A DNA stretch of 62,571 nucleotides, filler included. It is 6 parts of 6 records of this genome, joined end to end, with 100 filler letters (N's around TTAATTAATTAA, not from the genome) between each part and the next. Parts side by side here need not be neighbours in the genome. Positions count along the whole stretch, not along the records: positions 42,936 to 56,870 come from DRR723986_20381; 5 more parts are not named here. One strand, written 5' to 3'. Below, piece by piece: positions 29,868-55,577 of this stretch. Position 1 is the first letter of the stretch. Each line of letters opens with the position of its first letter. The translations under genes and the position numbers were made by a program. The notes under the pieces are model-generated. The model was given only the letters and a program-made list of their open reading frames with translations. It searched no databases and was not told where the DNA came from.

Positions 29868-29922
29868 CGCGTACGCTTTCGCGCATCAGTGACCCAGACG
29901 ATGTCACCAATCGGAGCCTTTC

Positions 29923-31024: not shown

Positions 31025-31117
31025 TTCGCTCTCTCCCGTGCTGCCCCTTTGACAAAGCTTAATTTTGCCAAACGCGCAACATCATAGCCCAACCTGAACT
31101 GGCGGATTGGAACAGCG

Positions 31118-33709: not shown

Positions 33710-34328
33710 CNNNNNNNNNNNNNNNNNNNNNNNNNNNNNNNNNNNNNNNNNNNNTTAATTAATTAANNNNNNNNNNNNNNNNNNNNNNNNNNNNNNNNNN
33801 NNNNNNNNNNAATATACACATTAGTGTTAACACGCCCTAATTATCGACCTATTAAGTGTTAGGCATTTTGAGTTAAACAAGCCTGTTACATACGCGCCAC
33901 CTTCATGGAAGCGTAAAAGTTCTTTTTGCCGAAGTCTGGAATGAGAACCTATTAGTCAACTATGCCGCACCGGGCGTTTATGTTTGTGTCTGGAAAGAGG
34001 GGCGCAAACTTAGTCTATATTCTAAAATGAAATGATGATGTTTTGTCGCGTTAGTTAGAGCGTTTTCGTTTGTCGTTAATCCACCGGGGCTCTACTTCTT
34101 ACGAGTCTCTTCGCCAAATCGTTTTACTGTTTGAAATGTCTTGTTACAGCGTCAAACTGCTGTTGATGCCGAATATCCGCCTGCAGGCACAAACCGGCAG
34201 GCGGACTGACTTTTAACGTGAGTGTTTGGCGGTGATGCTTGGAGTGGCGCATTAGCCGGCAGAACTTTGCCATGGCAACGTTGAGCTGGGGAATAGCGGC
34301 AATCGGGCAACGGTTAGCTCGCTGCCTG

Positions 34329-35186: not shown

Positions 35187-35207
35187 GATGATTCCTTCAA
35201 ATTAAAC

Positions 35208-35227
35208 ATGACTGACTAATCAGTCAT
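35208..35227. promoter_or_regulatory. Putative TetR operator
   Basis: Perfect inverted repeat ATGACTGA-ctaa-TCAGTCAT, 21 bp upstream of the SDR start and just after the TetR gene. Confidence 0.7.
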
Positions 35228-35244
35228 AAATATACGAAAAAAAA

Positions 35245-35808
35245 TTATGCCCTGATGCCGTCCCAGAAAATTCTAAAGCTGGTATGGATGTGCTTGTTCA
35301 ATTTTGCGCCTTTTAACTTGTTTTCCTCGGTATACATTATGGTTGCGAGCAGCTGGGCAGCAAAGACGCGATTTAAGTAGTCAGTAGGCACATTTTTGAC
35401 CAGGCCTTGGGAAATGGCAGCGTGCAGAGTGGAGTGTATCAGACTGAAGAGTTCATCCGCTGTTTTGGCAGCGGCTTCCGTGATCAGGTTTGACATTTTT
35501 AAGAGTGTACCAACGCGCTGGCTGAGGGGATTTTTGACGGCCCAGTGAGTGTAGCTTTTCCAGAGGTGGAGCAGAAGTGTTTCAAGCTCAATGTCTGCAT
35601 CAACACCATCAAGAACGTGGAGCGCAATTTCGTTTTTTATCGAGAGGTAAACTGCGTCGATCAGGTCTTGTTTGGTGGGGAAGTGGTTAAACAGGGTGCC
35701 GTTGGAACACTCAGCTTCTTTGGCGACTTTAGCTGTCGGCACAGCCAGACCGTCTTTGGCAAACAGGCGAATTGCAGCTGCAACAATTTGGTCTTTACGG
35801 TCTGGCAT
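35245..35808 (-). CDS. TetR/AcrR family regulator
   Basis: HTH pattern IVAAAIRLF...TAKVAKEAECSNGTLFNHFPTKQDL. Confidence 0.93.
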   Translation of the reverse strand: MPDRKDQIVAAAIRLFAKDGLAVPTAKVAKEAECSNGTLFNHFPTKQDLIDAVYLSIKNEIALHVLDGVDADIELETLLLHLWKSYTHWAVKNPLSQRVGTLLKMSNLITEAAAKTADELFSLIHSTLHAAISQGLVKNVPTDYLNRVFAAQLLATIMYTEENKLKGAKLNKHIHTSFRIFWDGIRA

Positions 35809-35953
35809 GAATCAATTAATTGTGTCTAAAAGTTCAGAGAAAGTTGGTTGAGCAACAATGTAAGAAATTCAAATAATCTCACACACACTTGTTAAATGTT
35901 GTCCACTGCGCAAGAGTGCAAGTACATGACCGATCTGCGAAGCAAGTTTTGTA

Positions 35954-37207
35954 TTAGGGCGTTTTATACCGAATACTAATCTCAGAATTGTCAACGCAAT
36001 GATTAGAAAGAAAAGTCTGCTCAACAAATTGAGCATTCGGCTCTTTGGATTCACGCTGCCGGCCTGAAAACTCCGTCCGTGCATTTTGGCAGAGTTCATC
36101 ATCTTCAATAATAAGCCTGTCCCCAGACTGTGACATCGCATTCGGATCAATCGTTACTTTAAGAAAATATGAAGCGTACTCAACAGGTGCTTCCCCAGTA
36201 GAATATTCAATAGTTGTATTAGTGTTATTCTCGTAAACAATTGAACTGAGCTGGTTTTCCGTACCTTCAAACACAAAATGTACATTTACATTATGCTTGT
36301 CGGTCAGTCCGTCTTGGCGAGGTTGCTCAAAGGAGTCGCTAATTGTGACGGTGTTGATTTCTGGCCGGTACACAAATTCTCCATTGCCACTGCGAGGGTT
36401 GACACCAAAAGTCCCTTGCTGCCAGACTTTAGCTGGATTTGCATTCTGCTCGGGATTCTCACTGATATTGATGGCGAAATTATATATCACAAAGTAGAAG
36501 TTATCTCCACAAGCATTTTTAGGGCTGAGTGGTTCGGGGAAAGTGTGTAAGTGTACTCGCGGCAGTAAAGGGTCAGTGGGGCTGTCTGAGACCCTGATTA
36601 CTCCGTCTCCAATTGGTCTGGTATGCACAAAAACTATCTCAGTAGGAGACACCTCCAATGTAATTTGAATGCTGGATCCTATTGCAATTGTGGGCCAACC
36701 GAGGACATCAAAATTTTGGCCCTTAATGGTAATCGGTTCATTACGACAGGCATCCAGCGGCTCAATCGACTCAAAAATTACCTTGCTGTATTTGTCTTCT
36801 TCATCGTCGCACTCTGTGTCAAACTCATATACTAAAACTCCTGTATTTAAGGCTTTAGAATGTGTGACTTCGACGGTGCCGTTAGTAAGTTCATCTGGAA
36901 TAATCGCAGTCAAAAGATTTTCAGTCGCCGTTAACACCTCAGTTGTATGACCGGAAATTTTCAAGTTGATTTCGGATGGTACAGTCGTGAAGTTACGACC
37001 ATAGATAGTAATTGGTTGGCCACCACAGAGAATGGGTTGGTCAATTGAATCAAGTACGATTTCTACTTTTGGATCTTCTGATTCCTGTGGCACCTCGGTT
37101 GGCTTAACACTATCGTCATCTTCGCATGCTGAGATGGTGCAAATAAAAATCATTGCGGCTAACGCAATCGAATATTTCTTGCTCAATTGTACATTTTGAC
37201 CAACCAT
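35954..37207 (-). CDS. Lipoprotein with two IPT/TIG-like domains
   Basis: Lipobox ISA-C(EDDD), with repeats 'SIDQP...ITIYGRNF' and 'SIEP...ITIKGQNF'. Confidence 0.75.
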   Translation of the reverse strand: MVGQNVQLSKKYSIALAAMIFICTISACEDDDSVKPTEVPQESEDPKVEIVLDSIDQPILCGGQPITIYGRNFTTVPSEINLKISGHTTEVLTATENLLTAIIPDELTNGTVEVTHSKALNTGVLVYEFDTECDDEEDKYSKVIFESIEPLDACRNEPITIKGQNFDVLGWPTIAIGSSIQITLEVSPTEIVFVHTRPIGDGVIRVSDSPTDPLLPRVHLHTFPEPLSPKNACGDNFYFVIYNFAINISENPEQNANPAKVWQQGTFGVNPRSGNGEFVYRPEINTVTISDSFEQPRQDGLTDKHNVNVHFVFEGTENQLSSIVYENNTNTTIEYSTGEAPVEYASYFLKVTIDPNAMSQSGDRLIIEDDELCQNARTEFSGRQRESKEPNAQFVEQTFLSNHCVDNSEISIRYKTP

Positions 37208-37244
37208 AAAATTCGGCCCATATTATGCTGATTCTGACTAGAGC

Positions 37245-39581
37245 TTAGCGCTTGCCGCGTCCCTTGGACTTGCCTTTTTTGCGGCCACCGGAATGGCGTT
37301 TACTGCCGCCGCTACCACCGCGACCATAGCGTTTACTACCTGCACTGCCGCCACCGCTTCCGCCGCTTTTACGGCCTTCGCGTTTTTCCACCTGCGCCAG
37401 CAGTTTGCGGGCTTCATCCATATCTACTTCGGCTTCGGCATCAGCAGGAATACCTTTGTATGTGAAGTCGATTTCGCGCTTTTCAACGTTAACACGTGCT
37501 ATTTGAATCCGCATGCGCGTACCGATGCGGTAGATGCGGCCGCGACGTTTGCCAATCAGTGAAAAACGGCGTTCATCAAAGAAGTAGAAGTCGTCGTCCA
37601 GATCGCGAACGCGCAGCAGGCCTTCGGCGTAAATGTCATCGATCATCACAAACAGGCCAAAGTTTGTGACGCCGGTGACCGTGCCATCAAAGACTTCACC
37701 AATTCGGCTCTGTGCGATTGCCACCTGCGTTAACTTTATCGAAGCACGCTCGGCCAGAACAGCCGTTTGCTCGCGGGCACTGCACTGGTCTGAGACCAGG
37801 TCCATGACTTCATACAGCCGGCCCAGTCGGTCGTTATCCGGAATGCCGACGGCATACTCTTTTAACAGCCGGTGCGCAATCAAATCAGCGTAGCGCCGAA
37901 TCGGCGACGTGAAGTGCGAATAGTCAGAAAAACCTAGACCGTAGTGACCAATATTATAATCGGAATAGATGGCTTTGGCCATCGAACGCAACATGATCTG
38001 GTTAATCGCGCTGTACTCGCGGCGGTCTTTACAGGAGCGTATGATCTTGTTAATGTCGCGCGAGTTTAACTTGCCGTTTTGAACGTCTACGCCAAGCGAA
38101 CGGACTAACTCCATCGCATCATTCATTTTTGCAGTATCCGGCTCGTCGTGGACCCTATAGATAAAGGGCAGCAGCCGTGGCTTACGCACCGGGCCGGGGG
38201 ATATCTTCTTCACATGTGTCGCCACTGTCTGATTAGCCAGTAGCATACACTCTTCAACCAGGGAAGTAGCGTCGGTACGACTTTTCAGTTTAGCGGAGAC
38301 GGGCTGCTTGTTTTCGTCCAGGCTAAACTTGATTTCTTTGGTGTCGAAATCGATTCCACCTTTGGCGTAGCGTTTTTTGCGGAGTGTCTCTGCCAGGCCA
38401 TGCAAGCGCTGAATTAACTCAGCGTATTTGTGTTCTTTTTTGCCTTCAATTAACTCTTGCGCCTCTTCATAGCTGAAGCGTTTTTTGCTGCGAATAACCG
38501 TTTCGCGAATCTCGTAGTTTTTGAGTGCGCCGCGCGGCGAAAGGTCCATAAAGACCGAGTAGGCCAGGCGGTTGCGATTGGGCATCAAAGAGCAAATATT
38601 GTTCGAGAGTGTTTCCGGCAGCATCGGAATGACACCGTCTACCAGGTACACGCTGTTGCCGCGTTTAAGGGCTTCCAGATCCAGCTGCGAGTTTTCTTTA
38701 ACGTAATGGCTTACATCGGCGATGTGCACGCCCAGGCGCACAATATTATCGTCCAGCTGCTCCAGCGAAAGCGCGTCATCAAAGTCGCGCGCATCAACCG
38801 GGTCGATCGTAATGATGTCCAGCTCGCGCAAATCAAGCCTGCGCGCTACTTCTTTGGGTGATACGCGCTTGGCGACGACATCGGCTTCAGCAGACACTTC
38901 CGGCGCAAAATTCGGGTTTAGATGAAATTCGCGGGCGATGGACGCAAATTCAACTCCGGCATGACCGGCACGGCCCAGAACTTCCACGATTTCAGCTTCG
39001 GGGCTTTTGAAGGGATCGTCCCAGCGAATTAAACGGCCAACAACTTTATCACCATCACGCGCGTTTTTGAGGCGCTTGGGATGGATCAGGAAGTCGACGT
39101 GGACGTTTTCATCGTCGGGTATCAGAAAGTTAAAATCACTGTTGCAGTCGAGTTTGCCAACGTAGTTGGTGTGGTTGCGTTTGTTAACACGTATAATCTC
39201 GCCGTTGGCTTTGTCATCGCGGTCAAAGGCCTGCAACTTAACGCGAACTTCGTCGCCATGCATGGCCGTCCACAGGTAGGGACGTTTAACATGTACTTTG
39301 GGAAAGTTAACTGAGCTGGTATAAACAACGCCGTTAAAACCATGAATCTCAAGACGCCCGTCAAATGTCGTTTCTGTCTGGCCGGAGAGGCCATAGCGTC
39401 GTCGCGTCGATCGATAAATCAGGCCTTCCTCAACCATCACGTTGAGTGTCTCACGCAGCTGCTGGTATTCTTCGCTGTCTGAAGGCAGGTTTAAGAAGCG
39501 TGAGAGTTCGTTAAGTCGCATTGTTTCAGGGAAACGCTGCTTTAGTTGGGACAGAATGTCCTCGCGCATGCTAGCGCTCAT
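37245..39581 (-). CDS. rnr: Ribonuclease R
   Basis: TIDPVDARDFDDA, HIADV and HFTSPIRRYAD motifs, an S1 domain and a basic C-terminal tail. Confidence 0.96.
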   Translation of the reverse strand: MSASMREDILSQLKQRFPETMRLNELSRFLNLPSDSEEYQQLRETLNVMVEEGLIYRSTRRRYGLSGQTETTFDGRLEIHGFNGVVYTSSVNFPKVHVKRPYLWTAMHGDEVRVKLQAFDRDDKANGEIIRVNKRNHTNYVGKLDCNSDFNFLIPDDENVHVDFLIHPKRLKNARDGDKVVGRLIRWDDPFKSPEAEIVEVLGRAGHAGVEFASIAREFHLNPNFAPEVSAEADVVAKRVSPKEVARRLDLRELDIITIDPVDARDFDDALSLEQLDDNIVRLGVHIADVSHYVKENSQLDLEALKRGNSVYLVDGVIPMLPETLSNNICSLMPNRNRLAYSVFMDLSPRGALKNYEIRETVIRSKKRFSYEEAQELIEGKKEHKYAELIQRLHGLAETLRKKRYAKGGIDFDTKEIKFSLDENKQPVSAKLKSRTDATSLVEECMLLANQTVATHVKKISPGPVRKPRLLPFIYRVHDEPDTAKMNDAMELVRSLGVDVQNGKLNSRDINKIIRSCKDRREYSAINQIMLRSMAKAIYSDYNIGHYGLGFSDYSHFTSPIRRYADLIAHRLLKEYAVGIPDNDRLGRLYEVMDLVSDQCSAREQTAVLAERASIKLTQVAIAQSRIGEVFDGTVTGVTNFGLFVMIDDIYAEGLLRVRDLDDDFYFFDERRFSLIGKRRGRIYRIGTRMRIQIARVNVEKREIDFTYKGIPADAEAEVDMDEARKLLAQVEKREGRKSGGSGGGSAGSKRYGRGGSGGSKRHSGGRKKGKSKGRGKR

Positions 39582-39695
39582 ATAGTAATCCTTTTTTAGG
39601 CAAAAGCGACGGCTGCTGGCTCCCACACGGTTGTACCGTGCTTGTGGTGTCGGGCCGCATGGACATCCGTCGCATCAGTGTATTATGCACAGTCA

Positions 39696-42467
39696 TCAAG
39701 AGTAAACCACAACGCTATTGCTGCGTTCGGCCGCGAGCGTCAAAACACTTTCAGCTTCTTCAAGGAAGGCATCGAGAGACTCATGCCCGGCATATTCAAC
39801 CAGGCCAACACTGACTGTAACAGAAAATTGTTGATCGCCACGCTCCAAAATTGTGCTGGCGATTTTGTTGCGGATACGCTCGGCCCACAGTTCCGTGGTG
39901 CGCGAATCCGCGTCGATCATTCCAATGCCGATCGTGTCGTCATTCACACGTCCAATCAGGTCATAGGGGCGGATTTCCCGGCTGAGCATCTCAAGGACGT
40001 GATGCATGCAGCTTTCGGCGAATTCTGTGTTAATGCGCGCCGCAAAATTGCGATACTGATCCATGGAAAGCAGGCAAAGCGTCAGGTGCAGCTTTTGATC
40101 ACGGGCACGCACAAATTCTGCGTACAAGCGATTCTGGAAGGCTGTAAAGTTTGGAATACCTGTCGATTCGTCAATCAAAGCGTTGCTTTGCAGAACGCTG
40201 CTGACGTCTATCTGTTCCAGTACCGAACCGGCATACTCTGCCAGCAGTTCGATGATTTGAATGTCGCCACGCGTCAGTTCATTGCTGCGTGGAGTTTCGA
40301 TGAACACAGCACCAAAACAACTTTGCAGCGATTTAATCGGGACGAAGGTGTACGTTGAATTTTCAAGCGGCATTTCCTGCGGACTTACGCGAATGATATT
40401 CGGATCAATATCGCTGTGAGCGCGCGTTTCGCCGGCCAGAATTGCCTGACCGATCAGAGAATTGTGCAGGTCTACCGGTTCGCCGCTCAGGTTGGCGTGG
40501 CCGCTGTTGCGCATGCGCAATTCGGCAATCACCCAGGACTGGCGCTCCTGTTCATAAATACAGACACCCAGAATTGAGTGCGGAATCAGCGGAGCCAGTT
40601 TATCGACCAATGCAAAACAGATGTCGTGCCGCGTATTATTGGGATCGTTAATCAGACGGCGGAATCCATCAATCGATTCCATCGTCCGCGCCGATTGCAG
40701 CAGGTCGTATTTTTCGCCATAACCCTGGATCAGGCCACCGATCAGTTTGGTAAAGTGCCCCAGGAAGCCAACCGTTTGTGTGTCGTAGGCGTCTTCTTCA
40801 GTTGTATCAGCCGTCAGCACACCCCAGACCATGCCGTTGTAGTAAACCGGCACACCCACAAAGGAGCGTGTGCGCGCGGCGCTGGAGTAGTAGGGCAGCA
40901 GGTCCAGCTCCGCACTTGGATTGATTTCCGTCAGGATTTCCGGCGAGCCATTTGCCGCAATCTGGCTAACGACGTCACTGCCGAAGGCCAGTTTGCGTTT
41001 GTCGATCAGCGCATCTGGATCATCGGAGATTTTACTCTCGATCACAAATTCGGCTTTGTCGATGTTGACCCACAGGAACATCGTCGTGCGTGCGCTGATC
41101 ACTGAGCGAATGACCATCAGCACGCGTTTGATCAGGTAGTCAAATTCTTTGCGCGGTTCGTTGCGCAGGCTGTCGAGGTGTTCCTCAAAAATTTCTTCCA
41201 GCTGGATATTCAGCTTTTTGCGCTTGTGGCCGACGCTGAACTGTTCGTGCTGCTCTTCGCTATCTGCAGCTGCAGGCGCCTCAAGGGGTGCGTTTGCAGC
41301 AGGGCCGGTTTCCGGCGCTTGTGTTTGCGGGGCCGGGGCTACGGGTTTGGCCGGCGCCGGTTTAGCGGCTGCAGCTTGTTTGGCTGCCGTCTCTCTGGCT
41401 GCAGACTCTCTGGCTGCTGCTGATTCTCTAGCTGCTGCTGACTCTTTGGCTGCGGCGCGTTTTTCAGCGCGTTGTTTTTTGCGTTTGGCCTTGGAGCCTG
41501 TCTCTTTGGGCTGTTTGCCGGCCGCGTCCTGGGCTTGTTGTTGTTCGGCTTGCGGCTGGGGTTTAGCGGCTTGAGTCGCGGGGGCTTGGGGCTGGTTTTC
41601 CGCTGGTTTTTCGGATTTTGCTTCCGCAGGCTCCGCTTGAGCTTGTTTTGGCGCGGCAGGCGCGGCTTGAGCACTTTTAGCTGGATTCGTTGGAACTTCG
41701 GGCTGCGTTGCTTCAGGCTGTGGCACTTCTTTGGAGGCTATCTTTTTAGCTGAATCACCAGTGCTGCGTCGTGCTTTCGCAGGTTCTTGATGTGTCTGGG
41801 CCGGCGTTTTTGGCTGTGCCTGCTGTTGTGTTTTGGGCTCGGCCTGAGGTTCTGCTTGAGGTTCTGCTTGAGTTTTCTTGTTTGTCTCCGGGAGAGAAGC
41901 CTCAGCTTGAGTCCCACTGCCGATGATGCGAAAACCTTCGACGCTGTCATCGAGTTCGCTATCATCAGCGCGGTAGGCAGCGCCAATGATTGATCCGGAC
42001 GCTGCGTCAGGTTGCGGCGTCGGCGGAGCTACGGGCACGGTCTTGCGACTTGGGGCCGGCGGCGGCGTTGTGGAACCCGCCTGTTCAGCGGCCTGCTCGT
42101 GCTCAGGTGAGTTTTGGGCGGCACCGTCTTCATCTGGCGGACGGTTGGGAAATTCGTCGTTGCCAAAAGAAGCGGCATAGTCATCAAAGATGAGCCGTTT
42201 AGTGGTTGGGTCTTGCTTGACGGTCGTCTTAAACGCTGTGGTTTCGGAGACCGGTTTAGTGGCGTGCATTGATATGTCTTTCGTTCGCTGCGAGAAGAGC
42301 AGGAACAGAGCGACGACGCCCAGGATGGAAACGCAGGCGCCGATCAGCTTGATGGCTGCCTGGTCTAGAAACAGTGCAATACCCAGGCCCAGCAGGATCG
42401 CCAGAACAGCTGGAAAATCCGTGACCGGATTGATAAGGCGCCAAAACTCTTGACTGCGATTTGTCAT
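39696..42467 (-). CDS. Membrane-anchored protein: 2 TM, long P/Q/A/K-rich linker, two GAF domains, degenerate GGDEF
   Basis: N-terminal hydrophobic pair; GAF (RSFVGVPV...GVLTAD); C-terminal D..TGIPN...TVSVG fold with the signature read as RVNDDT. Confidence 0.8.
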   Translation of the reverse strand: MTNRSQEFWRLINPVTDFPAVLAILLGLGIALFLDQAAIKLIGACVSILGVVALFLLFSQRTKDISMHATKPVSETTAFKTTVKQDPTTKRLIFDDYAASFGNDEFPNRPPDEDGAAQNSPEHEQAAEQAGSTTPPPAPSRKTVPVAPPTPQPDAASGSIIGAAYRADDSELDDSVEGFRIIGSGTQAEASLPETNKKTQAEPQAEPQAEPKTQQQAQPKTPAQTHQEPAKARRSTGDSAKKIASKEVPQPEATQPEVPTNPAKSAQAAPAAPKQAQAEPAEAKSEKPAENQPQAPATQAAKPQPQAEQQQAQDAAGKQPKETGSKAKRKKQRAEKRAAAKESAAARESAAARESAARETAAKQAAAAKPAPAKPVAPAPQTQAPETGPAANAPLEAPAAADSEEQHEQFSVGHKRKKLNIQLEEIFEEHLDSLRNEPRKEFDYLIKRVLMVIRSVISARTTMFLWVNIDKAEFVIESKISDDPDALIDKRKLAFGSDVVSQIAANGSPEILTEINPSAELDLLPYYSSAARTRSFVGVPVYYNGMVWGVLTADTTEEDAYDTQTVGFLGHFTKLIGGLIQGYGEKYDLLQSARTMESIDGFRRLINDPNNTRHDICFALVDKLAPLIPHSILGVCIYEQERQSWVIAELRMRNSGHANLSGEPVDLHNSLIGQAILAGETRAHSDIDPNIIRVSPQEMPLENSTYTFVPIKSLQSCFGAVFIETPRSNELTRGDIQIIELLAEYAGSVLEQIDVSSVLQSNALIDESTGIPNFTAFQNRLYAEFVRARDQKLHLTLCLLSMDQYRNFAARINTEFAESCMHHVLEMLSREIRPYDLIGRVNDDTIGIGMIDADSRTTELWAERIRNKIASTILERGDQQFSVTVSVGLVEYAGHESLDAFLEEAESVLTLAAERSNSVVVYS

Positions 42468-42935
42468 GCGGGGAGACTTTGAGAAAACACACAGAACAGA
42501 AAATGTGTGTTCGCGGACAAATGCCGACAGACGTCAAACATTTGGGCGGTGCGGCGCTGAGGGCAGGCACAAAAACATCATTGTCAAACAGGTCGCGGTA
42601 CGATGTACCGTGAGTCCATTAAAGTTCGCAATTGATTGAAGATGTAAGCTGCTGCAAGGAAAACTTCGCCACCGCCGGGACATCCTGTGAACAGGAGTAT
42701 TCCGCGAATAAGCAATAAATTACACAAATCCGCGAACATGCTCAAATCGGGGATTTGAGGTGGTTGGCGGAGCTGTGGGATGGGGGATATTTTTTGAGCC
42801 TCAATAAAGTAATCCAGAGCAGCTGCTCTGGATTANNNNNNNNNNNNNNNNNNNNNNNNNNNNNNNNNNNNNNNNNNNNTTAATTAATTAANNNNNNNNN
42901 NNNNNNNNNNNNNNNNNNNNNNNNNNNNNNNNNNN

Positions 42936-42965
42936 CTTGAGTCAATGTGGTCGTTCGAAGCCTGA
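42936..42965 (+). CDS. Precursor peptide copy 1, C-terminal fragment (...LESMWSFEA*)
   Basis: CTT GAG TCA ATG TGG TCG TTC GAA GCC TGA gives the same peptide end as the gene at 43011-43184. Truncated by the contig start. Confidence 0.8.
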   Translation, partial: LESMWSFEA

Positions 42966-43010
42966 GAACATTAGTATTTGGTCACCATTTCTTGACGTAG
43001 AGACAGCACT

Positions 43011-43184
43011 ATGCAAAATTCAACCGTTCAGACACTGACATTAGATGAAATGACCCAATTGGATGCTGGTGCTACCGTGCACGGCGCCGATTTCTCGCAA
43101 CTATCAGACATCCACAGCTCCACCAGCAGTGATACAATCAATGGCAGCTACAGCCTAGAGTCAATGTGGTCCTTTGAAGCCTGA
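43011..43184 (+). CDS. Double-glycine-type leader precursor peptide (57 aa), copy 2
   Basis: MQNSTVQTLTLDEMTQLDAG-ATVHGADFSQLSDIHSSTSSDTINGSYSLESMWSFEA. The leader fits L(-12), E(-8), M(-7), L(-4), A-G(-2,-1). It lies directly upstream of a C39 ABC transporter and is absent from the ORF track (under 60 aa). Confidence 0.85.
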   Translation: MQNSTVQTLTLDEMTQLDAGATVHGADFSQLSDIHSSTSSDTINGSYSLESMWSFEA

Positions 43185-43217
43185 TTAACCATTCGGCCTT
43201 TAAGTTTTAAAATTTCT

Positions 43218-43257
43218 AAGTCCGCGAATAAAGTATTCGAGGGCTTTTTTTGTTTTT
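43218..43257 (+). terminator. Intrinsic terminator after the precursor genes
   Basis: Stem AAGTCCGCGAATA-aag-TATTCGAGGGCTT followed by TTTTTGTTTTT. Confidence 0.7.
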
Positions 43258-43360
43258 GGCATGATAATAGTGTATTTGTTCCGTGAATTAGTGATTGATG
43301 GTTTATTGTAGGCAAGCGGAGTCTCACGACTGCCTGGTTAGACTAATTCAGTGGAATCGA

Positions 43361-45547
43361 ATGTTTGAATCTTACAAAGTTGTTCAGCAACAAGCACAGC
43401 GGGATTGTGGTGCGGCATGCCTTGCGACCGTCGCCCTTTTCCACGGCTTAACCCTGCCATTTGCCCGCGTACGCGAATATGCAGCGACCGATACCGGTGG
43501 AACGACCGTTCTGGGGATGGTGACAGCTGCCGAGAAACTCGGCTTCAATGCAAAGGGTGTCAGAGCAACAGACGAATCCCTTGAGGAACTCCCACTTCCC
43601 TTCGTCGCCAGAATCGAAAAGCCTGGTGTGGGACCACACTACGTCGTCGTCTTTAAATTCAATAAGTCCAAGGTCGTAATTGGTGATCCAGCTGTTGGGC
43701 TTTGCAAGATTTCGCGGTCGGAGTTCCTTGACCAATGGACAAATATCGCCATTCTGTTGAGTCCAGGTGAGGAATTCGAGAGAGGTAATCTAACGCAGAG
43801 TAATATGCAGCGTTTTATGGACCTCGTCAAACCCCATAAAGTTCTGGCAATGGAAGCCTTCATTGCCGCTCTTTTTTACACAGTTCTGGGTGTTGCCACA
43901 GCTTTCTACGTTGGCCTCTTGCTGGATGAAGTCTTCCCGAATCACGATGAGCGGCTGCTGCATGTATTGTCGGCAGGTATGCTGCTCATCATTGTATTCC
44001 GCGCATTTTTCGGCTGGCTCAGGCGCCTATTACTATTGCTGATTGCACAAAAAATTGATGCGCGTCTCATTCTGGGCTATTACAAACACATACTGCGCCT
44101 GCCGCAATCGTTCTTCGATGCACGCCGCGTGGGCGAAATCATAGCACGTGTCAATGATGCTGTAAAAATTCGCAATGCCGTCGGGGGCACAACTCTTACG
44201 GTAGTGATTGACTCCCTGATGATTGTGTTTGCCTTTGCTGTTCTGGTTTTGTATTCCTGGAAACTGGCGCTGCTGGCAGCCGCGGTGTTCCCCGGTTTTG
44301 TAATGCTCTACCTGTTCCTGCGAAACCCGATTCGGACAACGCAGCGCAAGCTTATGGAAAGTTCTGCGGAGCTGCAGGCACAATACACTTCGAGTATCAA
44401 TGGCATTGACACAATCAAGGCCGTCTCTGCCGAACGATCATCCAACCTGAAGACCGAGCTGATATTCACACGTATCCTGCGTTTGATGGAACGTGCCACA
44501 AAACAAAGCATGGTCAATGGCACTGCCGCCGAAACCTTGAGCGGACTCGCAGTCCTGGGCTTGTTCTGGTACGGGGGCACACTCGTTTTTGCCGGAGAAG
44601 TCACACTAGGAGAGCTGGTAGCATCTTACACTCTGGTTGGGTATTTAACTGCACCGCTGGCGCGACTCATCAACGTTCATCAGTCAGTGCAGGATGCCCT
44701 TATCGCCGCCGATCGACTCTATGAAATCCTTGCAATTGAAACCGAAGATGCGCCGAATGAACTGAAGATCAGTCTTCAGCCAGATTCGGTTGAAGGCGCC
44801 ATCTCTCTTCACGATTGCAACTTTCGCTATGGTGCACGCGCCTGGACGCTTAAAAATGTCAACCTTGAGATTCCCGCCGGTAAGATAACGGCGATTGTTG
44901 GTGAATCCGGCTCCGGCAAGACTTCCCTGCTCAAGCTGCTGCAAAAACTCTACACAGTCAATGAAGGCAAGATTTTGCTGGATGGTGTTGACCTGCGCGA
45001 CATTGACATGGCGTCCCTGAGACGCATCATGGGAATTGTTCCCCAGTCAATCGAGCTGTTTCACGGCAGCGTTCTGGAAAATGTAGCCCTGGGAGACTTC
45101 AATCCGCGTGTGGAAAAAGTAATGGAAGTCTGTGCTCTGGTTGGTGCAGACTCATTCATAAACGACCTGCCTTCGCGTTACAATACTCTACTTGGTGAAC
45201 ACGGAGCAACTATTTCGGGCGGCCAGCGGCAGCGCCTGGCGATTGCCAGGGCCTTATATAATGATCCAAAATTACTCTTGCTGGATGAAGCGACCAGTAA
45301 TTTGGATAGTGAAGCCGAAGCCGCGATTCAAACATTACTTGGCCTGCTTAAGTATCAGCATATGACGATTGTTATGGTCGCACATCGCCTCTCAACAGTC
45401 ATGCGGGCGGACCAGATCGTTGTTCTGGAGGCCGGGCAAATCGTAGAGTCAGGCAATCACAAAGAACTAATTGAACGTCGCGGTAAGTACTTCCAGCTCT
45501 GGAATCGGCAATTACCGCTTGATGCTCTTAATGATCTATTTTCATAG
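43361..45547 (+). CDS. Peptidase-containing ABC transporter (PCAT; C39 peptidase + TMD + NBD, SunT/LanT-like)
   Basis: QQQAQRDCGAACL (catalytic Cys), PHYVVV (His), IGDP (Asp), Walker A GESGSGKT, ISGGQRQR, LLDEATS and AHRL. Start set at MFESYKVV. Confidence 0.95.
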   Translation: MFESYKVVQQQAQRDCGAACLATVALFHGLTLPFARVREYAATDTGGTTVLGMVTAAEKLGFNAKGVRATDESLEELPLPFVARIEKPGVGPHYVVVFKFNKSKVVIGDPAVGLCKISRSEFLDQWTNIAILLSPGEEFERGNLTQSNMQRFMDLVKPHKVLAMEAFIAALFYTVLGVATAFYVGLLLDEVFPNHDERLLHVLSAGMLLIIVFRAFFGWLRRLLLLLIAQKIDARLILGYYKHILRLPQSFFDARRVGEIIARVNDAVKIRNAVGGTTLTVVIDSLMIVFAFAVLVLYSWKLALLAAAVFPGFVMLYLFLRNPIRTTQRKLMESSAELQAQYTSSINGIDTIKAVSAERSSNLKTELIFTRILRLMERATKQSMVNGTAAETLSGLAVLGLFWYGGTLVFAGEVTLGELVASYTLVGYLTAPLARLINVHQSVQDALIAADRLYEILAIETEDAPNELKISLQPDSVEGAISLHDCNFRYGARAWTLKNVNLEIPAGKITAIVGESGSGKTSLLKLLQKLYTVNEGKILLDGVDLRDIDMASLRRIMGIVPQSIELFHGSVLENVALGDFNPRVEKVMEVCALVGADSFINDLPSRYNTLLGEHGATISGGQRQRLAIARALYNDPKLLLLDEATSNLDSEAEAAIQTLLGLLKYQHMTIVMVAHRLSTVMRADQIVVLEAGQIVESGNHKELIERRGKYFQLWNRQLPLDALNDLFS

Positions 45548-45702
45548 TCATTTCGTTACATCTTCAATTCCTTGGTTAAGGAAACTGTAACGAAGCTCTA
45601 TATTATGCTGAATTCTTGTAATTTCCGCATGCCTTATAAGCTGCGGTGGATACGCAATTCAGAGGGTAGAGAGCGTTTTTTCCGGAACGACATTATCTCT
45701 AT

Positions 45703-47001
45703 ATGAGCGGTAACGAAGACATAAAGGGTGGACCAATTTTAACGCGGCCAACGAAACAACGTGGCAGCGACAAGGAAGAGCGCGCTGTAGATGCTCTGCC
45801 TGACGAGGTTTTATTGCGGAAGGAATTGCTTCCCAACACCCTGGAAGTTTATCTGGCGCGCCCCAGCTATGCGCTGCGCATCGGCTTTTGGTTGCTGGCT
45901 TTGCTACTGACCGGCCTGGTAATATGGGCATCATTTGCTACAATTGATGTCATGGTGAAAGCGCGCGGCAGCATCCGCCCGGCAACGGACGTACAGCAAT
46001 TTATAAGCCCTTTTGATGGAGAAGTTGATCAAATCTTCGTTAAAGAAAATTCAACTGTGGCAGCCGGTGATACATTGATGGTTTTTGACGTCAGTGAGTG
46101 GCAAGAGCAGTTGCAAATCAATGACGTTCAGCTCTCAATGATCGCCAGTGAAAAAACAGATCTCAGGGCTATGCTGGCGGCAACGCCTCTGAGTTTTAAC
46201 GGAGATGCATATCAAAGTCTCCTTCCCTCACCACCGGCACTGGTTATCCCCAAGTACATTTCGCGCTACAATGCTTTTACCCGGGACGTACAACTCTTGA
46301 TCCAGCAGTACGAAGTCTACCGCAAACGCGCAGACCGGGCAGATGAGTTATTTGCCAAAAGTGTCATAAGTGTTGAAGAACATGAGGCAAGCCTGGGAAC
46401 CGCAAGACTCCAGGAATTGCAGATAACACAGTACTTAAACAATACATACAAAGACCTGCGCGAGACTGTTTTCAACCTGGAGCAGGAAGTTAATTCGCTA
46501 CAACGCTCAGCTGCAACACTTAACGAAAATATCAACAAAGCACATGTCATCTCCAATGTGAGTGGTACCGTGACGGCACTGCAGGTCGAAATGGCAGGAG
46601 TATTTAGGTCGCGCGGCAGTGAACTTTGCCTGATTACACCTGACGAGGACCTACATGCCGAGATTCAGATTCTGCCACGTGATATCGGTTTACTGCGCGA
46701 AGACCTTAAAGTTAACTTTCTCGTAGATGCATATAGCTTCTCCGAGTGGGGAATTGCCACCGGTTACATCAGCGTCATCCCAGCTGATGTCACCCAGGAC
46801 AACAAAAGCGCACAGCCCTATTTCAAAGTGCAGGCAGAATTTGACTCTGTGACCCTGGACTACAAACGCCCATCCAACCGCAAGCTGCAAGTGAGCCTGC
46901 GCAAAGGTCTCGATTTCCAGGCAAATATTATTGTGGGCGAGAAACGTTTGATTGAATCACTGATCGACAAAACAGTCGATTACTTCTACTTCACAGATTA
47001 A
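45703..47001 (+). CDS. HlyD family membrane-fusion / periplasmic adaptor protein
   Basis: Single N-terminal TM, lipoyl-like halves (SPFDGEV..IFVKEN..V.AGD and SNVSGTV), coiled coil, and DIG...V...DAY...G C-terminal beta domain. Confidence 0.92.
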   Translation: MSGNEDIKGGPILTRPTKQRGSDKEERAVDALPDEVLLRKELLPNTLEVYLARPSYALRIGFWLLALLLTGLVIWASFATIDVMVKARGSIRPATDVQQFISPFDGEVDQIFVKENSTVAAGDTLMVFDVSEWQEQLQINDVQLSMIASEKTDLRAMLAATPLSFNGDAYQSLLPSPPALVIPKYISRYNAFTRDVQLLIQQYEVYRKRADRADELFAKSVISVEEHEASLGTARLQELQITQYLNNTYKDLRETVFNLEQEVNSLQRSAATLNENINKAHVISNVSGTVTALQVEMAGVFRSRGSELCLITPDEDLHAEIQILPRDIGLLREDLKVNFLVDAYSFSEWGIATGYISVIPADVTQDNKSAQPYFKVQAEFDSVTLDYKRPSNRKLQVSLRKGLDFQANIIVGEKRLIESLIDKTVDYFYFTD

Positions 47002-47092
47002 CAGAGCAGCCTCTTCCCTACCGGGAAGCAAGTTCTGTTTAACGATTTGTGGTATTCAAAGAATTAACAGGCCAGACAGGCAAACCCAAATA

Positions 47093-49234
47093 TCATTCAG
47101 CTGAGTGGTGATCTGCATCTATAGTTTTCATGCCGGCTTCTTCAGACATCACCGGAAGCTCAATACCAAATGTAGCGCCTTCACCCAAGACACTCTTACA
47201 CCAGATTGTTCCGTTCATACGCTCGATGAAGTTTTTAGCGATTGCAAGCCCCAAACCGGAAGAACTTTCCCCACCAGTGGGACGCGCATTCAGGCGGACA
47301 AACTTTTGATACAGTTTGCCTTGTTCTTCTTCTGAAAGGCCTGGGCCCTCATCTTTAACCTGCACTGAAATCTTACCTTCGATTTCCTCTACCGCGACCC
47401 ACACTCTACGTGACTTTGGAGAATACTTAATTGCATTGGAGATGAGATTTTCAAGAATCTCGTGAATCCGTTCCTCGTCCCCAACTACAAAGGCCGCAGT
47501 TTCCATTGCCTGGTGAATCAATGTAATGTTTTTGCGACGGGCACGCTGTTTGTACACACCTACAATTTTATCGACGGCACGCGACATTGAAACGCGATTC
47601 ATTTCAAAGCGCATGACTCCGTCTTCGAGCATCCGAACGTCAAGTAGATTTGAAATCAAATCCATCATCGAATCCGAGCAGGTCTGGATATTATCCAGAT
47701 ACTGCAAGATATCGCGTTTATTCAAGATGTTTAAGTACTGGCGCATGGAGTCACTGGCCAGCACAACACCCGTCAGCGGGTTCTTGAGGTCATGAGCCAC
47801 AATGCTCATAATCTCATTTTTCTCTTTGTCTACGACCAGCAGCTTCTCGTTGGAGACTTTAAGGCGCAGGTTGGTTTTCTCCAGCTCATTGTTAACACGC
47901 ATAATCTGATGCTGACGCGCTTCCAACTCCAGCTTGGCTTCTTCCAGTGAGGTAGACTTCTCTTCAAGCGCTGCATTTGCTTGCTCAATCTGCTGCAGGG
48001 CATTTGCCAGCTCAACGTTTTTGAGGCGATAAATCTCTTTCTCACGCTCAATCCGTTCCATGTCATAGCGAAATTCAATCGCAGTGATCGCTTTGTGTTT
48101 TTCGATATTACGCACTTCATTGCGCGTTTCGGAAAACATCTGGTAATACTCAAGTCCCTTTTTGAAGTCACCATTGGCAACGTGTACCTTGTACAGCACT
48201 TCGTACAGGCGGAACATCAAATCTTTATTTTTTGACTGACGCACAACGTCCAAACCGGAAAGGCATGCGCTAATAGCGTCGTCAAATCGCTTTTCGCTTA
48301 AATACACTTTACCAAGGTTAACATATACGTCAGTTAAACCGTTGGCATCCGGCATTTCAGAGTAAATCTTCATCGCCTTGAGCAGATACTGGATACAGCG
48401 ATCGGTATCTTTCAACTGCAAGTAGACGTTGCCAAGGTGTTTAAGTGAAAACGCAATACCAGTCTTGTCACCGGCGGATGTACGAATTTCCAGTGAAAGT
48501 GTTAAGTATTTGAGCGCTTCGTCAGTCTTGCTCAGGAAGCTGTAAATCAGGCCCATGTTGCCATAGGTGTGGGCCAAACCGCGCAAGTTTTTGGTCTTCT
48601 TAAATATTGGGAACGAACGCAAAAGGTACTTAAGCGCCGTTTCAAAGTTGTCCATTGAGAAGTAAATCGTGCTTACATTATTTAGAGTCGTAGCCAGGGT
48701 GCTTTCATCGCCAATTTCTTCACAAAGGCGCAGAGCACGCAAGTGATATTCCAGTGCGGTGTCAAACTGCGTCAGTTCTTTGTAGACAGTCCCGATATTT
48801 GTCAAGGTCGAAGCAACAATGCGCTTGTCACCCACCTTTTCATAGTGCGCCAAAACTTTGTGCTGATACTTGAGCGCCACACTATACTTGTTTAAGCGGG
48901 AATAGACGGCACCAAGCAAGTTAAATACACTGACTTTACCTTTTTCAAAGTCGGCCTTCTCATAGTATTCCAGTGCTTTCTGCGCGTCTGCCAGCGCACT
49001 GGGAAATTCTCCCAAAAGGCACTTACTAACGCCCAGGTTCTTCAGGCTTTCCGCCATACCGATCAGGTAGGCTTGGGGGTTGGCCATCTTAAGCGCCATT
49101 TGCGCCAGATTGCGCGCCTGGATCGGATTGAAGTTGCGCAGTTCCCAGGACTTCTGATTCAGAATGTCCACACGCTCACGATCATCGCTCGCTTCGTTGA
49201 GTTGGCTCTGTATGTCTGGGATCTTATCGACCAT
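47093..49234 (-). CDS. Soluble TPR-repeat histidine kinase
   Basis: Tandem TPRs (NLG/NIG...Y...ALEY..AL), long coiled coil, AHDLKNP, NLISNAIKYS, DEGPG and SSGLGL. No signal peptide or TM segment is visible. Confidence 0.92.
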   Translation of the reverse strand: MVDKIPDIQSQLNEASDDRERVDILNQKSWELRNFNPIQARNLAQMALKMANPQAYLIGMAESLKNLGVSKCLLGEFPSALADAQKALEYYEKADFEKGKVSVFNLLGAVYSRLNKYSVALKYQHKVLAHYEKVGDKRIVASTLTNIGTVYKELTQFDTALEYHLRALRLCEEIGDESTLATTLNNVSTIYFSMDNFETALKYLLRSFPIFKKTKNLRGLAHTYGNMGLIYSFLSKTDEALKYLTLSLEIRTSAGDKTGIAFSLKHLGNVYLQLKDTDRCIQYLLKAMKIYSEMPDANGLTDVYVNLGKVYLSEKRFDDAISACLSGLDVVRQSKNKDLMFRLYEVLYKVHVANGDFKKGLEYYQMFSETRNEVRNIEKHKAITAIEFRYDMERIEREKEIYRLKNVELANALQQIEQANAALEEKSTSLEEAKLELEARQHQIMRVNNELEKTNLRLKVSNEKLLVVDKEKNEIMSIVAHDLKNPLTGVVLASDSMRQYLNILNKRDILQYLDNIQTCSDSMMDLISNLLDVRMLEDGVMRFEMNRVSMSRAVDKIVGVYKQRARRKNITLIHQAMETAAFVVGDEERIHEILENLISNAIKYSPKSRRVWVAVEEIEGKISVQVKDEGPGLSEEEQGKLYQKFVRLNARPTGGESSSGLGLAIAKNFIERMNGTIWCKSVLGEGATFGIELPVMSEEAGMKTIDADHHSAE

Positions 49235-49340
49235 TGGATCTATGTTGCGGTCAGCTCAATGATTGACTCGCTCATCACCTATAGAGAATTGAATGTTTAA
49301 GCCTTGTAGTTTGCATGCTCCGGGCCACAAACTCTCACTC

Positions 49341-52300
49341 TTAGCCTTGCTCAGTCTGATCAAACTGTCCGTTTGCTTGCCGCCGTGGCAACAAGACAAT
49401 AAAGGTTGACCCACGGTCTACCTGACTCTCAACATCAATCGATCCGCCATGTAAATCGACAAATTCTTTTACCAGGGATAGCCCGATTCCGGTTCCAGGA
49501 CGTTGCAAGACATTCGAGGCACGAAAGAACGGCGAAAAAAGACGCACTTGCTCGTCTGCGGGAATGCCTATGCCACTATCGGAAACGCGAAGCTCAACTA
49601 ATCCTCCCTTTTCCGAGAGGCCGACTACAATTGGGCTGGCCGCACCGGAATATTTGACGGCATTGGACAAGAGATTCTTCACAACCTGACGCAACAATCG
49701 CGCGTCGCCAACAATTTTTGCATTCAATTCGGGGCCACATTCCAAACTGATGGCTGAGGCCGCCAGGTCCGCTGACTTAAGCTTTTCAATGACTTCGCTA
49801 CAGAGAGCTGCCAAATCCACATCGCCATATGACAAACGCTCACCAGCTGCAGGTAACGAACTCTGCAACAAAAAATCGTCCATCAGGTGCGTCAGTTCAG
49901 TGACGCGATGCTTGATTTTTCCAATTTCTTCCTGCCGTCTGCTGGCTTCCAATCTATCGGTGTATCGTTCCAATAGCTCCGCTGAAGAGAGAATCCCAGC
50001 CAAAGGTGTCCGGAACTCGTGCGAAACTGTGGAGACAAATCGTGTTTTGAGTGCGTTCAACTCACGCTCTGTTGTCAGAGCGCGTCGAAGTTGGCGTTCC
50101 GCCTGTTTCTGCTCTGTTATAATATGGCAAAAGATTCGCAGAATTTCTCCTTCCGGCAAATAACTTACTGAAAGATCATATACAACCCGCTCATTCTCAA
50201 ACTCATGACGAATGATTTTTCCTTCAGATTCAGCCAAGCCATCAATCTGCGGTCGCAACCAGGCCAGTAGTGGATGATCCAGTCCCTGTTCCTTTAGAGT
50301 CGGGAAGTGTTTTAGCGCTACGCGGTTCTGATAGGTAATTTCGCCGCCAAGCGATACTTCCAGAATTGGATTCGCATTCTGCTCCGGAAACGTTGCCAGC
50401 ATCTTCAAACGATTTTCCGCCAGCTTCTTCTCCGTCACATCCATCGCAGCCTGAATAAAATAACGCTCGCCGCTCTCTGCCCTAAATCGTGTGGCATACA
50501 TCTCCATGTAGCGGTAAGCACCAGACTTGTGCCTGAAACGGTACAGATCATGCGCCACACTTGGGCTGCCCTCACTAAACCAGCGCGTCCATAGCTGGTT
50601 CACGCGCTGGCTGTCATCGGGGTGATAAATATTCTCCGCCTCGTCATTAGACATGCGCACGAATTCTTTGACGCTATAACCCGTCTGTGCTTCAAAAGCG
50701 CGATTGGCGATATAACTCACCTGACCGTTACTATTGATCACTATTTGCATAATTCCAAGCGGCACAGCATCAATCAACCTTCGATTGCGCGCCTCTGAGT
50801 CACGCAGGCGCAGCTCTACTTTTTTCTGCTCAGTGATGTCCACCGCAGATCCAACGACTTCCTGAACGACATCTCCATCAAAAACCGGTTCCAGCACGTA
50901 GAAAAGCCATTGCCCTTCGAACTCCATTTCAAACCGTACGGAGTTGCCGGCAAATGCATCGCGTATGTGCGGCCCAACTCTATCGCGGTGCATGGAACCG
51001 AATATCTCATCCGGCGAGCGCTCAAATACCACTTCGGAAGTAATATCCCCGGCCAGTTTACCCTCACGCAAACGATACACAAAGGTGTCATCAGCACGCC
51101 GCACGAGTTTAAAGACCAGATTCTGCAAATTCTCGACTGTGCGCCGGAAGTCCTGCCGCAACGCATTTTCCAAGGCAGTCTGTGCTGTTCGCAGACGCGT
51201 GACATCTACGCAAATCTGATTGATAATCTCAACCTTGCCTTCGTCGTTCAGCTCAGCGAAGAGATAGGTGTCCAGCCAAACAAGGTCACCATGCCGGTTG
51301 ACAATCCGGTATTGCACATTCTGGCGCCCCGGAAAACCATCTTCATTCCAGCGCTTGTAAAAACCAAAGATGCGCTCGCGATCCTCAGGATGGATCATTT
51401 TGACCAGATCGTCGTCTGAAATCTGTTCAAATTCTGCCAGAGCATAACCAGACTGACGCTGGAATTCTTCGTTCACAAACTCGTAGCGCGACTCCTGCAC
51501 GTTAAAACTAGTGATCGCCACAGGCATATAATGCACTAACTTGCGTAGTTTCTCACTGCTGCGTTGTGCCGCCAGTTCAGCGCGCATACGCGCTGTTACG
51601 TTGGATATGATTCCCAGGCGCACGCCTTGCTGCTCGATAATCGAGTCCATTGAGGACATTCCGACTTCAACCCACAGACGCTCACCGGTGGCACTCAACA
51701 AGGTATTGAGATAACGTCCACGGAAATCCGGTTCATGTTCACTCGTATCTGCAAGTAAGCTGCCTTCGTCAAAACTGGCGTCAAACAATGAGTTTAGCCC
51801 GCGGCCTATCAACTCTGTACTGTCCAGGCCCATCAAACCACAGAAGCGATGATTGGCGTACAAGAGCGAGTCCTGCTCATCCACAATGAAAACGGCTTCA
51901 GAAAGTGCATCAATAAACTGGTGCGCATGTTTGAAGATATCATCCACAACCGCCGGCGCGTACTCAAATTTCCACACCCAGGCATTAACTTTGTCACCGT
52001 CATCCGCAAAAATCGGGCAGACGACGTCGCTAAACCGAAAGCGCAAGGCGCCAATTGAGATTGTTGCTTCTTCAGCCCGTCTGACTGCGACCTGGAATAG
52101 CTCATCATTCGGTAGCGCCGGCAAGTGATCTTCCCCGGCAAAACCAATCTCAACAAAATCCAGAATCGGCTGATTGTACAGTTTGGCCGGCGTAGCCGTC
52201 CCCAGGAGTTCAGTGGCGGTTGAATTGAAATGCTGAATCTTACCCGTAGCCGAGCACACGATCATGCACTCGGTCAGTGTATCACCATCCGCAGCACCGC

Positions 52301-52352
52301 CGGAATGTGCTGAGCTTCCTAGTGTATGATCCAGAACTCGTGATTTATCCAT
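49341..52352 (-). CDS. Soluble multi-PAS histidine kinase
   Basis: Several PAS/PAC units (IHPED, YHPDD, DITE.K), plus SHEFRTP, NLLSNAVKYS, DSGIGI and GTGIGL. Confidence 0.93.
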   Translation of the reverse strand: MDKSRVLDHTLGSSAHSGGAADGDTLTECMIVCSATGKIQHFNSTATELLGTATPAKLYNQPILDFVEIGFAGEDHLPALPNDELFQVAVRRAEEATISIGALRFRFSDVVCPIFADDGDKVNAWVWKFEYAPAVVDDIFKHAHQFIDALSEAVFIVDEQDSLLYANHRFCGLMGLDSTELIGRGLNSLFDASFDEGSLLADTSEHEPDFRGRYLNTLLSATGERLWVEVGMSSMDSIIEQQGVRLGIISNVTARMRAELAAQRSSEKLRKLVHYMPVAITSFNVQESRYEFVNEEFQRQSGYALAEFEQISDDDLVKMIHPEDRERIFGFYKRWNEDGFPGRQNVQYRIVNRHGDLVWLDTYLFAELNDEGKVEIINQICVDVTRLRTAQTALENALRQDFRRTVENLQNLVFKLVRRADDTFVYRLREGKLAGDITSEVVFERSPDEIFGSMHRDRVGPHIRDAFAGNSVRFEMEFEGQWLFYVLEPVFDGDVVQEVVGSAVDITEQKKVELRLRDSEARNRRLIDAVPLGIMQIVINSNGQVSYIANRAFEAQTGYSVKEFVRMSNDEAENIYHPDDSQRVNQLWTRWFSEGSPSVAHDLYRFRHKSGAYRYMEMYATRFRAESGERYFIQAAMDVTEKKLAENRLKMLATFPEQNANPILEVSLGGEITYQNRVALKHFPTLKEQGLDHPLLAWLRPQIDGLAESEGKIIRHEFENERVVYDLSVSYLPEGEILRIFCHIITEQKQAERQLRRALTTERELNALKTRFVSTVSHEFRTPLAGILSSAELLERYTDRLEASRRQEEIGKIKHRVTELTHLMDDFLLQSSLPAAGERLSYGDVDLAALCSEVIEKLKSADLAASAISLECGPELNAKIVGDARLLRQVVKNLLSNAVKYSGAASPIVVGLSEKGGLVELRVSDSGIGIPADEQVRLFSPFFRASNVLQRPGTGIGLSLVKEFVDLHGGSIDVESQVDRGSTFIVLLPRRQANGQFDQTEQG

Positions 52353-53637: not shown

Positions 53638-53675
53638 GTTCTCCTCAACCCGAAACCCAATTAGTCTAAAATTCT

Positions 53676-55517: not shown

Positions 55518-55577
55518 ACGCAGCACATCAATGTCACAGTCCAGAATTACGCCAGCTAGAATACAAGGTTAAACAAT

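Follow-up and report, generated by a model that had tools for sequence, protein, structure and literature searches.

Tandem genes for a rare peptide with a double-glycine-type leader beside a PCAT exporter in a Kapaibacterium-related lineage

What is encoded by adjacent genes whose products end in the same nonapeptide, LESMWSFEA, and whose shared codons differ only silently, and why does the contig that carries them begin inside the first copy? The question is raised by a stretch of 62,571 nucleotides, here called the window, which is not a continuous piece of genome. It consists of six contigs (1-17666, 17767-25219, 25320-33710, 33811-42835, 42936-56870 and 56971-62571), separated by an artificial 100-base spacer (44 N, TTAATTAATTAA, 44 N) that occurs five times in identical form, against an expectation of zero. 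The G+C content of the contigs spans 0.483 to 0.587. Given that six contigs of differing composition are joined by spacers, adjacency across the spacers is meaningless and the bin may be mixed. A GGDEF/GAF gene at 39696-42467, considered as a neighbour of the first peptide copy, was rejected because it sits on another contig. It encodes, on the minus strand, a 923-residue GAF-GAF-GGDEF protein, in which an N-terminal hydrophobic stretch is followed by a low-complexity linker of about 350 residues rich in Pro, Gln, Ala, Glu and Lys. The five other contigs contain neither a second peptide copy nor the conserved upstream block of the relatives described below, and the MiaB-type and GWxTD genes that lie upstream of the peptide in those relatives are absent from them as well. 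The partner contig is therefore not in the window.

Relatives were found by a transporter scan with one genome per species. In three of the loci obtained, the PCAT, an ABC exporter with a C39 peptidase domain, is 81% (L001 and L002) or 71% (L003) identical to that of the window, and homologous peptide genes occupy the same place, with a single copy each in L001 and L002 and three in tandem in L003. All four loci share the order peptide gene(s), PCAT, HlyD. The full order in the relatives is a radical SAM enzyme of the MiaB/RimO type (UPF0004 and TRAM domains), a GWxTD protein, the peptide gene(s), PCAT, HlyD and then two histidine kinases on the opposite strand. L003 is labelled Candidatus Kapaibacterium, phylum Bacteroidota. 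L002 is labelled Hyphomicrobiales, although a single order-level sample supplied its genome, G002, together with G001 and with G003, the one labelled Kapaibacterium. L002 also matches L001 at 81% PCAT identity and in its entire gene order, and the label looks wrong. Two more distant genomes, G013 and G029, carry PCATs that are 54% identical to that of the window. In G029, the PCAT lies downstream of a 48-residue peptide with a similar leader, and in G013, an orthologue of the TPR kinase is encoded on the same contig. Neither genome yielded a further peptide copy at E <=10, apart from the known G029 leader. The features of the window contig are collected in Table 1.

Table 1. Coordinates of the peptide-exporter locus and of the artificial joins in the window
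Feature	Position	Strand	Basis or remark
Artificial spacers	17667-17766, 25220-25319, 33711-33810, 42836-42935, 56871-56970	.	Joins between contigs
Peptide gene copy 1, 3' end: last 9 codons and stop	42936..42965	+	Truncated by contig start
Inter-copy spacer, 45 bases	42966..43010	+	Folding energy -4.4 kcal/mol, z 0.40
Peptide gene copy 2, complete, 57 aa, MQNSTVQTLTLDEMTQLDAGATVHGADFSQLSDIHSSTSSDTINGSYSLESMWSFEA	43011..43184	+	ORF, tblastn, alignment
Leader, residues 1-20, double-glycine type, Ala-Gly end	43011..43070	+	Alignment
Predicted mature peptide, 37 aa; conserved tail encoded by 43155-43181	43071..43181	+	Alignment, composition
Hairpin (11-position stem, 3-base loop) followed by seven T	43220..43251	+	Terminator- or attenuator-like, between peptide and exporter genes
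PCAT, 728 aa: C39 peptidase, ABC membrane domain, ABC ATPase	43361..45547	+	Pfam
HlyD-family membrane fusion protein; one N-terminal hydrophobic segment, residues 55-85	45703..47001	+	Pfam, hydropathy
TPR-repeat histidine kinase, convergent	47093..49234	-	No predicted membrane segment; syntenic in relatives
PAS-domain histidine kinase, convergent	49341..52352	-	No predicted membrane segment; syntenic in relatives

Peptide genes at the contig start

The first gene is seen only by its 3' end (CTTGAGTCAATGTGGTCGTTCGAAGCCTGA), the second in full, with the corresponding 30 bases at 43155-43184 (CTAGAGTCAATGTGGTCCTTTGAAGCCTGA). Both segments translate to LESMWSFEA and a stop. The initial annotation had described them as tails that differ by synonymous changes only and are followed by diverged DNA, and both observations are confirmed: three of the 30 bases differ (CTT/CTA, TCG/TCC, TTC/TTT), all at silent third positions, and over the 100 bases past each stop the two sequences show no relationship (22 of 100 positions identical). 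Exact matches to the 14-mer GAGTCAATGTGGTC are confined to two places in the window, 42939 and 43158; two further matches with three mismatches each are at chance level, 4.51 such matches being expected at up to three mismatches. Likewise, a tblastn search of the whole window with the peptide returned the full copy and the nine-residue fragment only. Position 42936 is the first base of its contig, so copy 1 is truncated, and its start and leader lie out of sight. As read from the sequence, the array in the window thus comprises at least two copies. The spacer between them contains no terminator-like fold (for its folding energy, see Table 1) and aligns loosely to the sequence 5' of the lone peptide gene in L001 and L002.

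The silence of the differences is informative. In a simulation, three random changes within the 27 coding bases were all silent in just 0.47% of 200,000 trials. The relative with three copies gives the same picture over a greater length: its tandem genes differ at 10 of 111 core bases, all of them third positions and all synonymous, an outcome that none of 200,000 random trials reproduced. All three copies in L003 encode the same 37-residue mature peptide, and the start of the leader has diverged in the first of them. These results support the earlier proposal of a real coding duplication under purifying selection (P ~0.005 in the window, 10 of 10 differences synonymous in L003). The silent-only differences further indicate that the duplicates are old enough for silent sites to have drifted, but are held to one product. 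Judging from the aligned copies, purifying selection covers the whole mature peptide and extends beyond its tail.

The proposal that the repeated tail is no assembly echo is borne out as well, since the sequences that follow the two copies are unrelated. Nevertheless, a related explanation has to be weighed, namely that an assembly error or a mixture of strains produced the 30-base fragment at the contig end and that the organism has a single copy. The closest relatives, L001 and L002, do have a single copy, and the ends of contigs in metagenome bins are error-prone. However, 45 bases unlike the 3' flank of copy 2 separate the fragment from the start of copy 2. With such a flank, it is neither the end of copy 2 duplicated together with its surroundings nor a strain variant of copy 2. 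It also differs from copy 2 by silent changes only, and in L003 three true tandem copies lie within a 212-kb contig. We therefore regard an artefact as very improbable.

The initial annotation had also suggested that the contig may break at this point because the array has more copies. The contig starts two bases ahead of the first difference between the copies, and if the copies were identical further upstream, this is where a repeat-collapse break would fall. A similar case is found in G013, where the contig of locus L020 (G013:C27) starts 28 bases before the stop of a peptide-type ORF ending in ATIIWSQIP, with the PCAT gene about 120 bases downstream; the rest of this ORF is on no other contig of G013. 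A contig start inside a peptide gene is thus seen in two of five assemblies of the clade, and it is plausible that the break in the window is due to the repeat array. By the same reasoning, it is plausible that tandem peptide genes break short-read assemblies and that their copy numbers are underestimated in metagenome bins.

Precursor, exporter and neighbouring genes

The precursor was analysed in an alignment of six sequences from four genomes (the window, L001, L002 and L003). Eight leader positions are invariant in it: L9, L11, D12, E13, M14, D18, A19 and G20. Double-glycine leaders are about 15-25 residues long and carry Glu at -8 and hydrophobic residues at -4, -7, -12 and -15 relative to the cleavage site. 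When G20 is taken as -1, the window peptide has L17 at -4, M14 at -7, E13 at -8, L9 at -12 and V6 at -15, in full agreement with this consensus, and L9, E13 and M14 are invariant in all six sequences. The end of the leader is different: the cleavage-site pairs given in the part of PMC12219008 used here are Gly-Gly, Gly-Ala or Gly-Ser, none of which matches the invariant A19-G20, with Ala in place of Gly at -2. In the G029 relative, a Gly-Gly stands exactly opposite the Ala-Gly, which makes cleavage after G20 likely, and we predict the processing site there on the basis of the alignment. Alternatively, the cut may fall one residue later, after Gly-Ala in the window, Gly-Ser in L003 and Gly-Thr in L001 and L002.

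The predicted mature peptide of the window has five Asp and Glu residues, no Lys, Arg or Cys, a calculated pI of about 4.1 and an unmodified mass of about 3966 Da. Its counterparts share this composition: in each of the four genomes, the mature form contains five to six acidic residues, is free of Lys, Arg and Cys, and has a calculated pI near 4.1. Beyond the leader, S29, Y47, W53, S54 and F55 are invariant in the six sequences. The middle is variable, contains indels and is rich in Ser, Thr, Gly and Asp; between the window and L001, the residue is changed in 18 of 25 ungapped middle codons, versus 4 of 20 leader codons. The tail, by contrast, has the conserved form [IM]-W-S-F-[ED]-[AV]. With W53, S54 and F55 invariant and the last residues conserved across six sequences from four genomes next to a variable middle, the C-terminal constraint postulated earlier for the nonapeptide is upheld. 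An AlphaFold model of the peptide is of low confidence (pLDDT 53.5), and a helix at residues 11-20 is its only informative part.

Between the peptide and exporter genes lies a hairpin followed by a T-run. Its counterpart in L001 has a folding energy of -28.2 kcal/mol (z -5.66), and the element is kept in L001 and L002, where one A-T pair of the window is a G-C pair, with both sides changed. A simple terminator scan left the hairpin in the window unflagged, and in L003 the element was not found. The PCAT that follows matches the Pfam families PF03412 (1.1e-35), PF00664 (5e-45) and PF00005 (4.5e-34) and has several hydrophobic segments. The best solved relative of its peptidase domain is PCAT1, to which residues 4-149 align with an E-value of 7.6e-32 (PDB); the C39 domain also aligns to the peptidase domain of ComA (PDB, E 1.4e-24). 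The Gln, Cys (in DCGAAC), His and Asp positions, which we take to be the catalytic ones, are all retained in the C39 alignment.

The highest 19-residue hydropathy values of the two kinases are 1.1 and 1.27, and no response-regulator or receiver-domain gene is adjacent to the locus. Further downstream, the window contig encodes Lgt, an S9 peptidase and a DUF1232 protein. It contains no gene for an outer-membrane channel, and the conserved neighbourhood of the four loci contains no modifying enzyme or maturase; the radical SAM gene two genes upstream of the peptide in L001 and L003 is of the MiaB/RimO type. Lastly, we searched for immunity genes among ORFs of 30-250 residues with a hydrophobic 19-residue stretch, bearing in mind that the upstream side is cut off in the window. 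No immunity-like ORF for a small membrane protein was found beside the peptide genes in the window contig, L001, L002 or L003: the small hydrophobic ORFs near the peptide genes either overlap them in other frames or are unconserved.

Other loci and the rarity of the family

Several observations in the relatives touch on the regions that the window lacks. Upstream of the first peptide copy, L001 (5566-5619) and L003 (4800-4853) share a 54-base block with 81% identity, which contains TTGACA and TAATTT separated by 17 bases. It is missing from the window, where the contig is truncated on that side; judging from its motifs, the block is likely a promoter region in L001 and L003. In L003, about 1.8 kb separate the GWxTD gene from the first peptide copy (3094-4882). 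This interval holds one 109-residue ORF without family, and no ORF with a Pfam match and no Rfam match was found in it. A different repeat is found in loci L013/L014 (G001:C80, ~38326-41433), where at least three tandem units of about 338 bases carry near-identical ORFs of 60 and 113-116 residues on opposite strands; it surfaced only as a weak leader-like match (E 0.24).

Among 14 distant PCAT loci (L020-L033) inspected with a simple double-glycine pattern, plausible ORFs were present in L021, L022 and L031 only, and none of these double-glycine-like ORFs has the W-S-F tail. In L022 (G053:C69), two unrelated ORFs of the double-glycine type, with 59 and 63 residues, lie upstream of a PCAT with 53% identity, and the second of them has a hydrophobic, Gly/Ala-rich core. 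The presence of such unrelated ORFs suggests that the PCATs of this clade serve different cargo families.

The peptide family itself is very rare. When a profile of the six peptides was compared with 1.84 billion cluster representatives, four proteins were retrieved at E <=0.001; two of them are peptides identical to the L002 and L003 forms, and the other two are partial matches within proteins of 1240 and 834 residues. In six-frame searches, 3 of the 201 genomes sampled from the order had full-length members, and of 401 sampled from the class a member was found in 1, the centre genome itself. No Pfam or NCBIfam model matches the peptide, Rfam has nothing at gathering score in L001 and L003, and a word-based protein search with a single peptide gave no match. 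A scan of metagenome contigs with the peptide alignment produced 214 pattern matches, of which none was confirmed, and the same kind of scan with the PCAT yielded five loci, all with just 25-33% matches to the ATPase part. The top score in the ESM Atlas, 0.86, falls short of the level that counts as a match. No published description of the peptide family was found in the literature searched, and when Kapabacteria or Kapaibacterium was combined with bacteriocin or peptidase C39, neither taxon appeared in the papers among the matches listed. Likewise, no other such peptides surfaced in searches of the Kapaibacterium-related lineage. The kind of system is thus well known, whereas the peptide family is new to the libraries searched. 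For this kind of system, the Ala-Gly cleavage pair, the acidic composition without Cys or basic residues and a conserved C-terminal tail kept identical across paralogues purely by selection are all unusual.

Possible functions and comparison with known systems

With moderate confidence, we lean towards the view that the tandem genes encode precursors of an unmodified, microcin-like peptide that is secreted by a type I route, with the copies being dosage duplicates and the role antagonistic. The C39 domain of the adjacent PCAT would cut the 20-residue leader after the Gly of the Ala-Gly pair, and the PCAT, its HlyD-type partner and an outer-membrane channel encoded elsewhere would export the peptide of about 37 residues across both membranes. 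The exported peptide would be linear, acidic and probably unmodified, and its conserved tail may be the part that contacts the target. Since the duplicates specify the same product, they would serve dosage, and the hairpin and T-run past the last copy could keep peptide transcripts above exporter transcripts. As to the role, a microcin-like antagonistic peptide seems most likely from the gene content. Counting against it are the Ala-Gly end of the leader, the lack of an immunity-like ORF beside the peptide genes and the lack of a channel gene in the locus. Furthermore, a signal would account equally well for paralogues with one mature sequence and for the lack of basic residues.

That the exported peptide is a cell-to-cell signal, its tail sensed directly or after re-uptake by a neighbouring histidine kinase, is the main rival reading; we consider it unlikely on balance, but it has several observations in its favour. 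The same mature peptide from all paralogues suggests dosage and not diversification, no immunity-like ORF was found in the window contig, L001, L002 or L003, and the TPR and PAS kinases stand convergent beside the exporter in all four of these loci, with a TPR-kinase orthologue also on the PCAT-bearing contig of G013. There is also precedent in streptococci, in which double-glycine peptides with PCATs serve as pheromones, as stated in the portions of PMC7018657 and PMC7595303 drawn on here. Of the two kinases, the TPR protein would be the likelier sensor, as TPR modules commonly bind peptide tails. Yet neither kinase has a hydrophobic segment, which makes a direct view of an external peptide impossible, and there is no adjacent response-regulator gene. 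The conserved adjacency may simply reflect vertical inheritance, because the synteny reaches the housekeeping-type MiaB/RimO gene in L001 and L003. Moreover, TPR kinases are hugely paralogous in the order, with matches in 137 of 201 genomes, often nine or more in each, and G029 has a related peptide and PCAT, but a best TPR match of only E 7.9e-23 and no orthologue of the kinase. A special form of signalling, which we hold to be quite improbable, would be a Bacteroidota-type pheromone whose re-imported tail binds the neighbouring TPR kinase in an RRNPP-like circuit built on a two-component kinase; if true, the kinase would replace the transcription factor or phosphatase of RRNPP circuits. Equally improbable is a bold reading by analogy, in which the W- and F-faced tail would act as a beta-strand mimic on an outer-membrane machine.

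It is likewise improbable that the genes encode RiPP precursors with a maturase elsewhere in the genome that would act on the conserved tail and at the invariant Tyr and Ser residues. A conserved leader, a variable middle and a conserved tail with S29, Y47, W53, S54 and F55 are typical of enzyme-read precursors, and the upstream side of the locus is missing in the window. Against this, the conserved neighbourhood of the four loci has no maturase-type gene, the only nearby radical SAM gene of the relatives combines UPF0004 and TRAM domains as do tRNA and ribosomal-protein methylthiotransferases, and the peptide has no Cys. The alternatives differ in what they would imply: a toxin would be a small, synthesisable lead against Bacteroidota, and a signal would provide a rare example of peptide signalling among diderm bacteria.

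Returning to the microcin-like, type I-secreted peptide that we favour, four known systems offer themselves for comparison. The exporter resembles PCAT1 of Clostridium thermocellum in its peptidase domain, with the active-site positions retained. However, PCAT1 belongs to a Gram-positive bacterium and is not known to work with a HlyD partner, and its cargo is unrelated to the peptide described here. The ComC/CSP pheromones, exported via ComA, share with it a double-glycine-type leader and a peptidase-containing ABC exporter. ComC peptides are paired with a histidine kinase in the membrane and with a response regulator, whereas the kinases beside the present locus have no membrane segment and no regulator is adjacent. 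The Pfam family of ComC does not match the peptide, and in the ESM Atlas a ComC cluster appeared only at rank 17 with a score of 0.82, a lead only.

The bacteroidetocins are the PCAT peptides already known from the same phylum. According to the sections of PMC6671954 considered here, they combine a GG leader with a PCAT, carry four Cys residues, and are encoded in regions with genes for a thiol oxidoreductase and a five-TM protein but without an immunity gene. Shared features, as far as those sections describe them, are the phylum Bacteroidota, a short leader for removal by a PCAT and a region in which no immunity gene was found. By contrast, the four Cys, the thiol oxidoreductase gene and the five-TM gene named there are all absent here, and we therefore rejected membership in this group.

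The closest parallel is provided by the class II microcins, which the part of PMC12219008 used here defines by a double-glycine signal, a PCAT, an MFP and TolC, and for which it describes a small membrane immunity protein encoded beside the peptide. A cargo with a leader, a PCAT and a fusion protein, with no maturase, suggest that the present system works like a class II microcin system. The likeness to the CvaB/CvaA-type PCAT-MFP-TolC systems lies in a linear peptide and a locus without maturase. The differences are several: the leader ends in Ala-Gly instead of the Gly-Gly, Gly-Ala or Gly-Ser of that description, the mature part is shorter at about 37 residues, no adjacent immunity gene was found beside the peptide, as opposed to the arrangement described there, no sequence family matches, and the host is an uncultured member of the Bacteroidota instead of the Enterobacteriaceae. 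In the present locus, PCAT and HlyD are adjacent, and no channel gene lies in the contig. On this comparison, a very rare peptide family joins the double-glycine/PCAT systems, in an uncultured lineage of Kapaibacterium relatives within the Bacteroidota.
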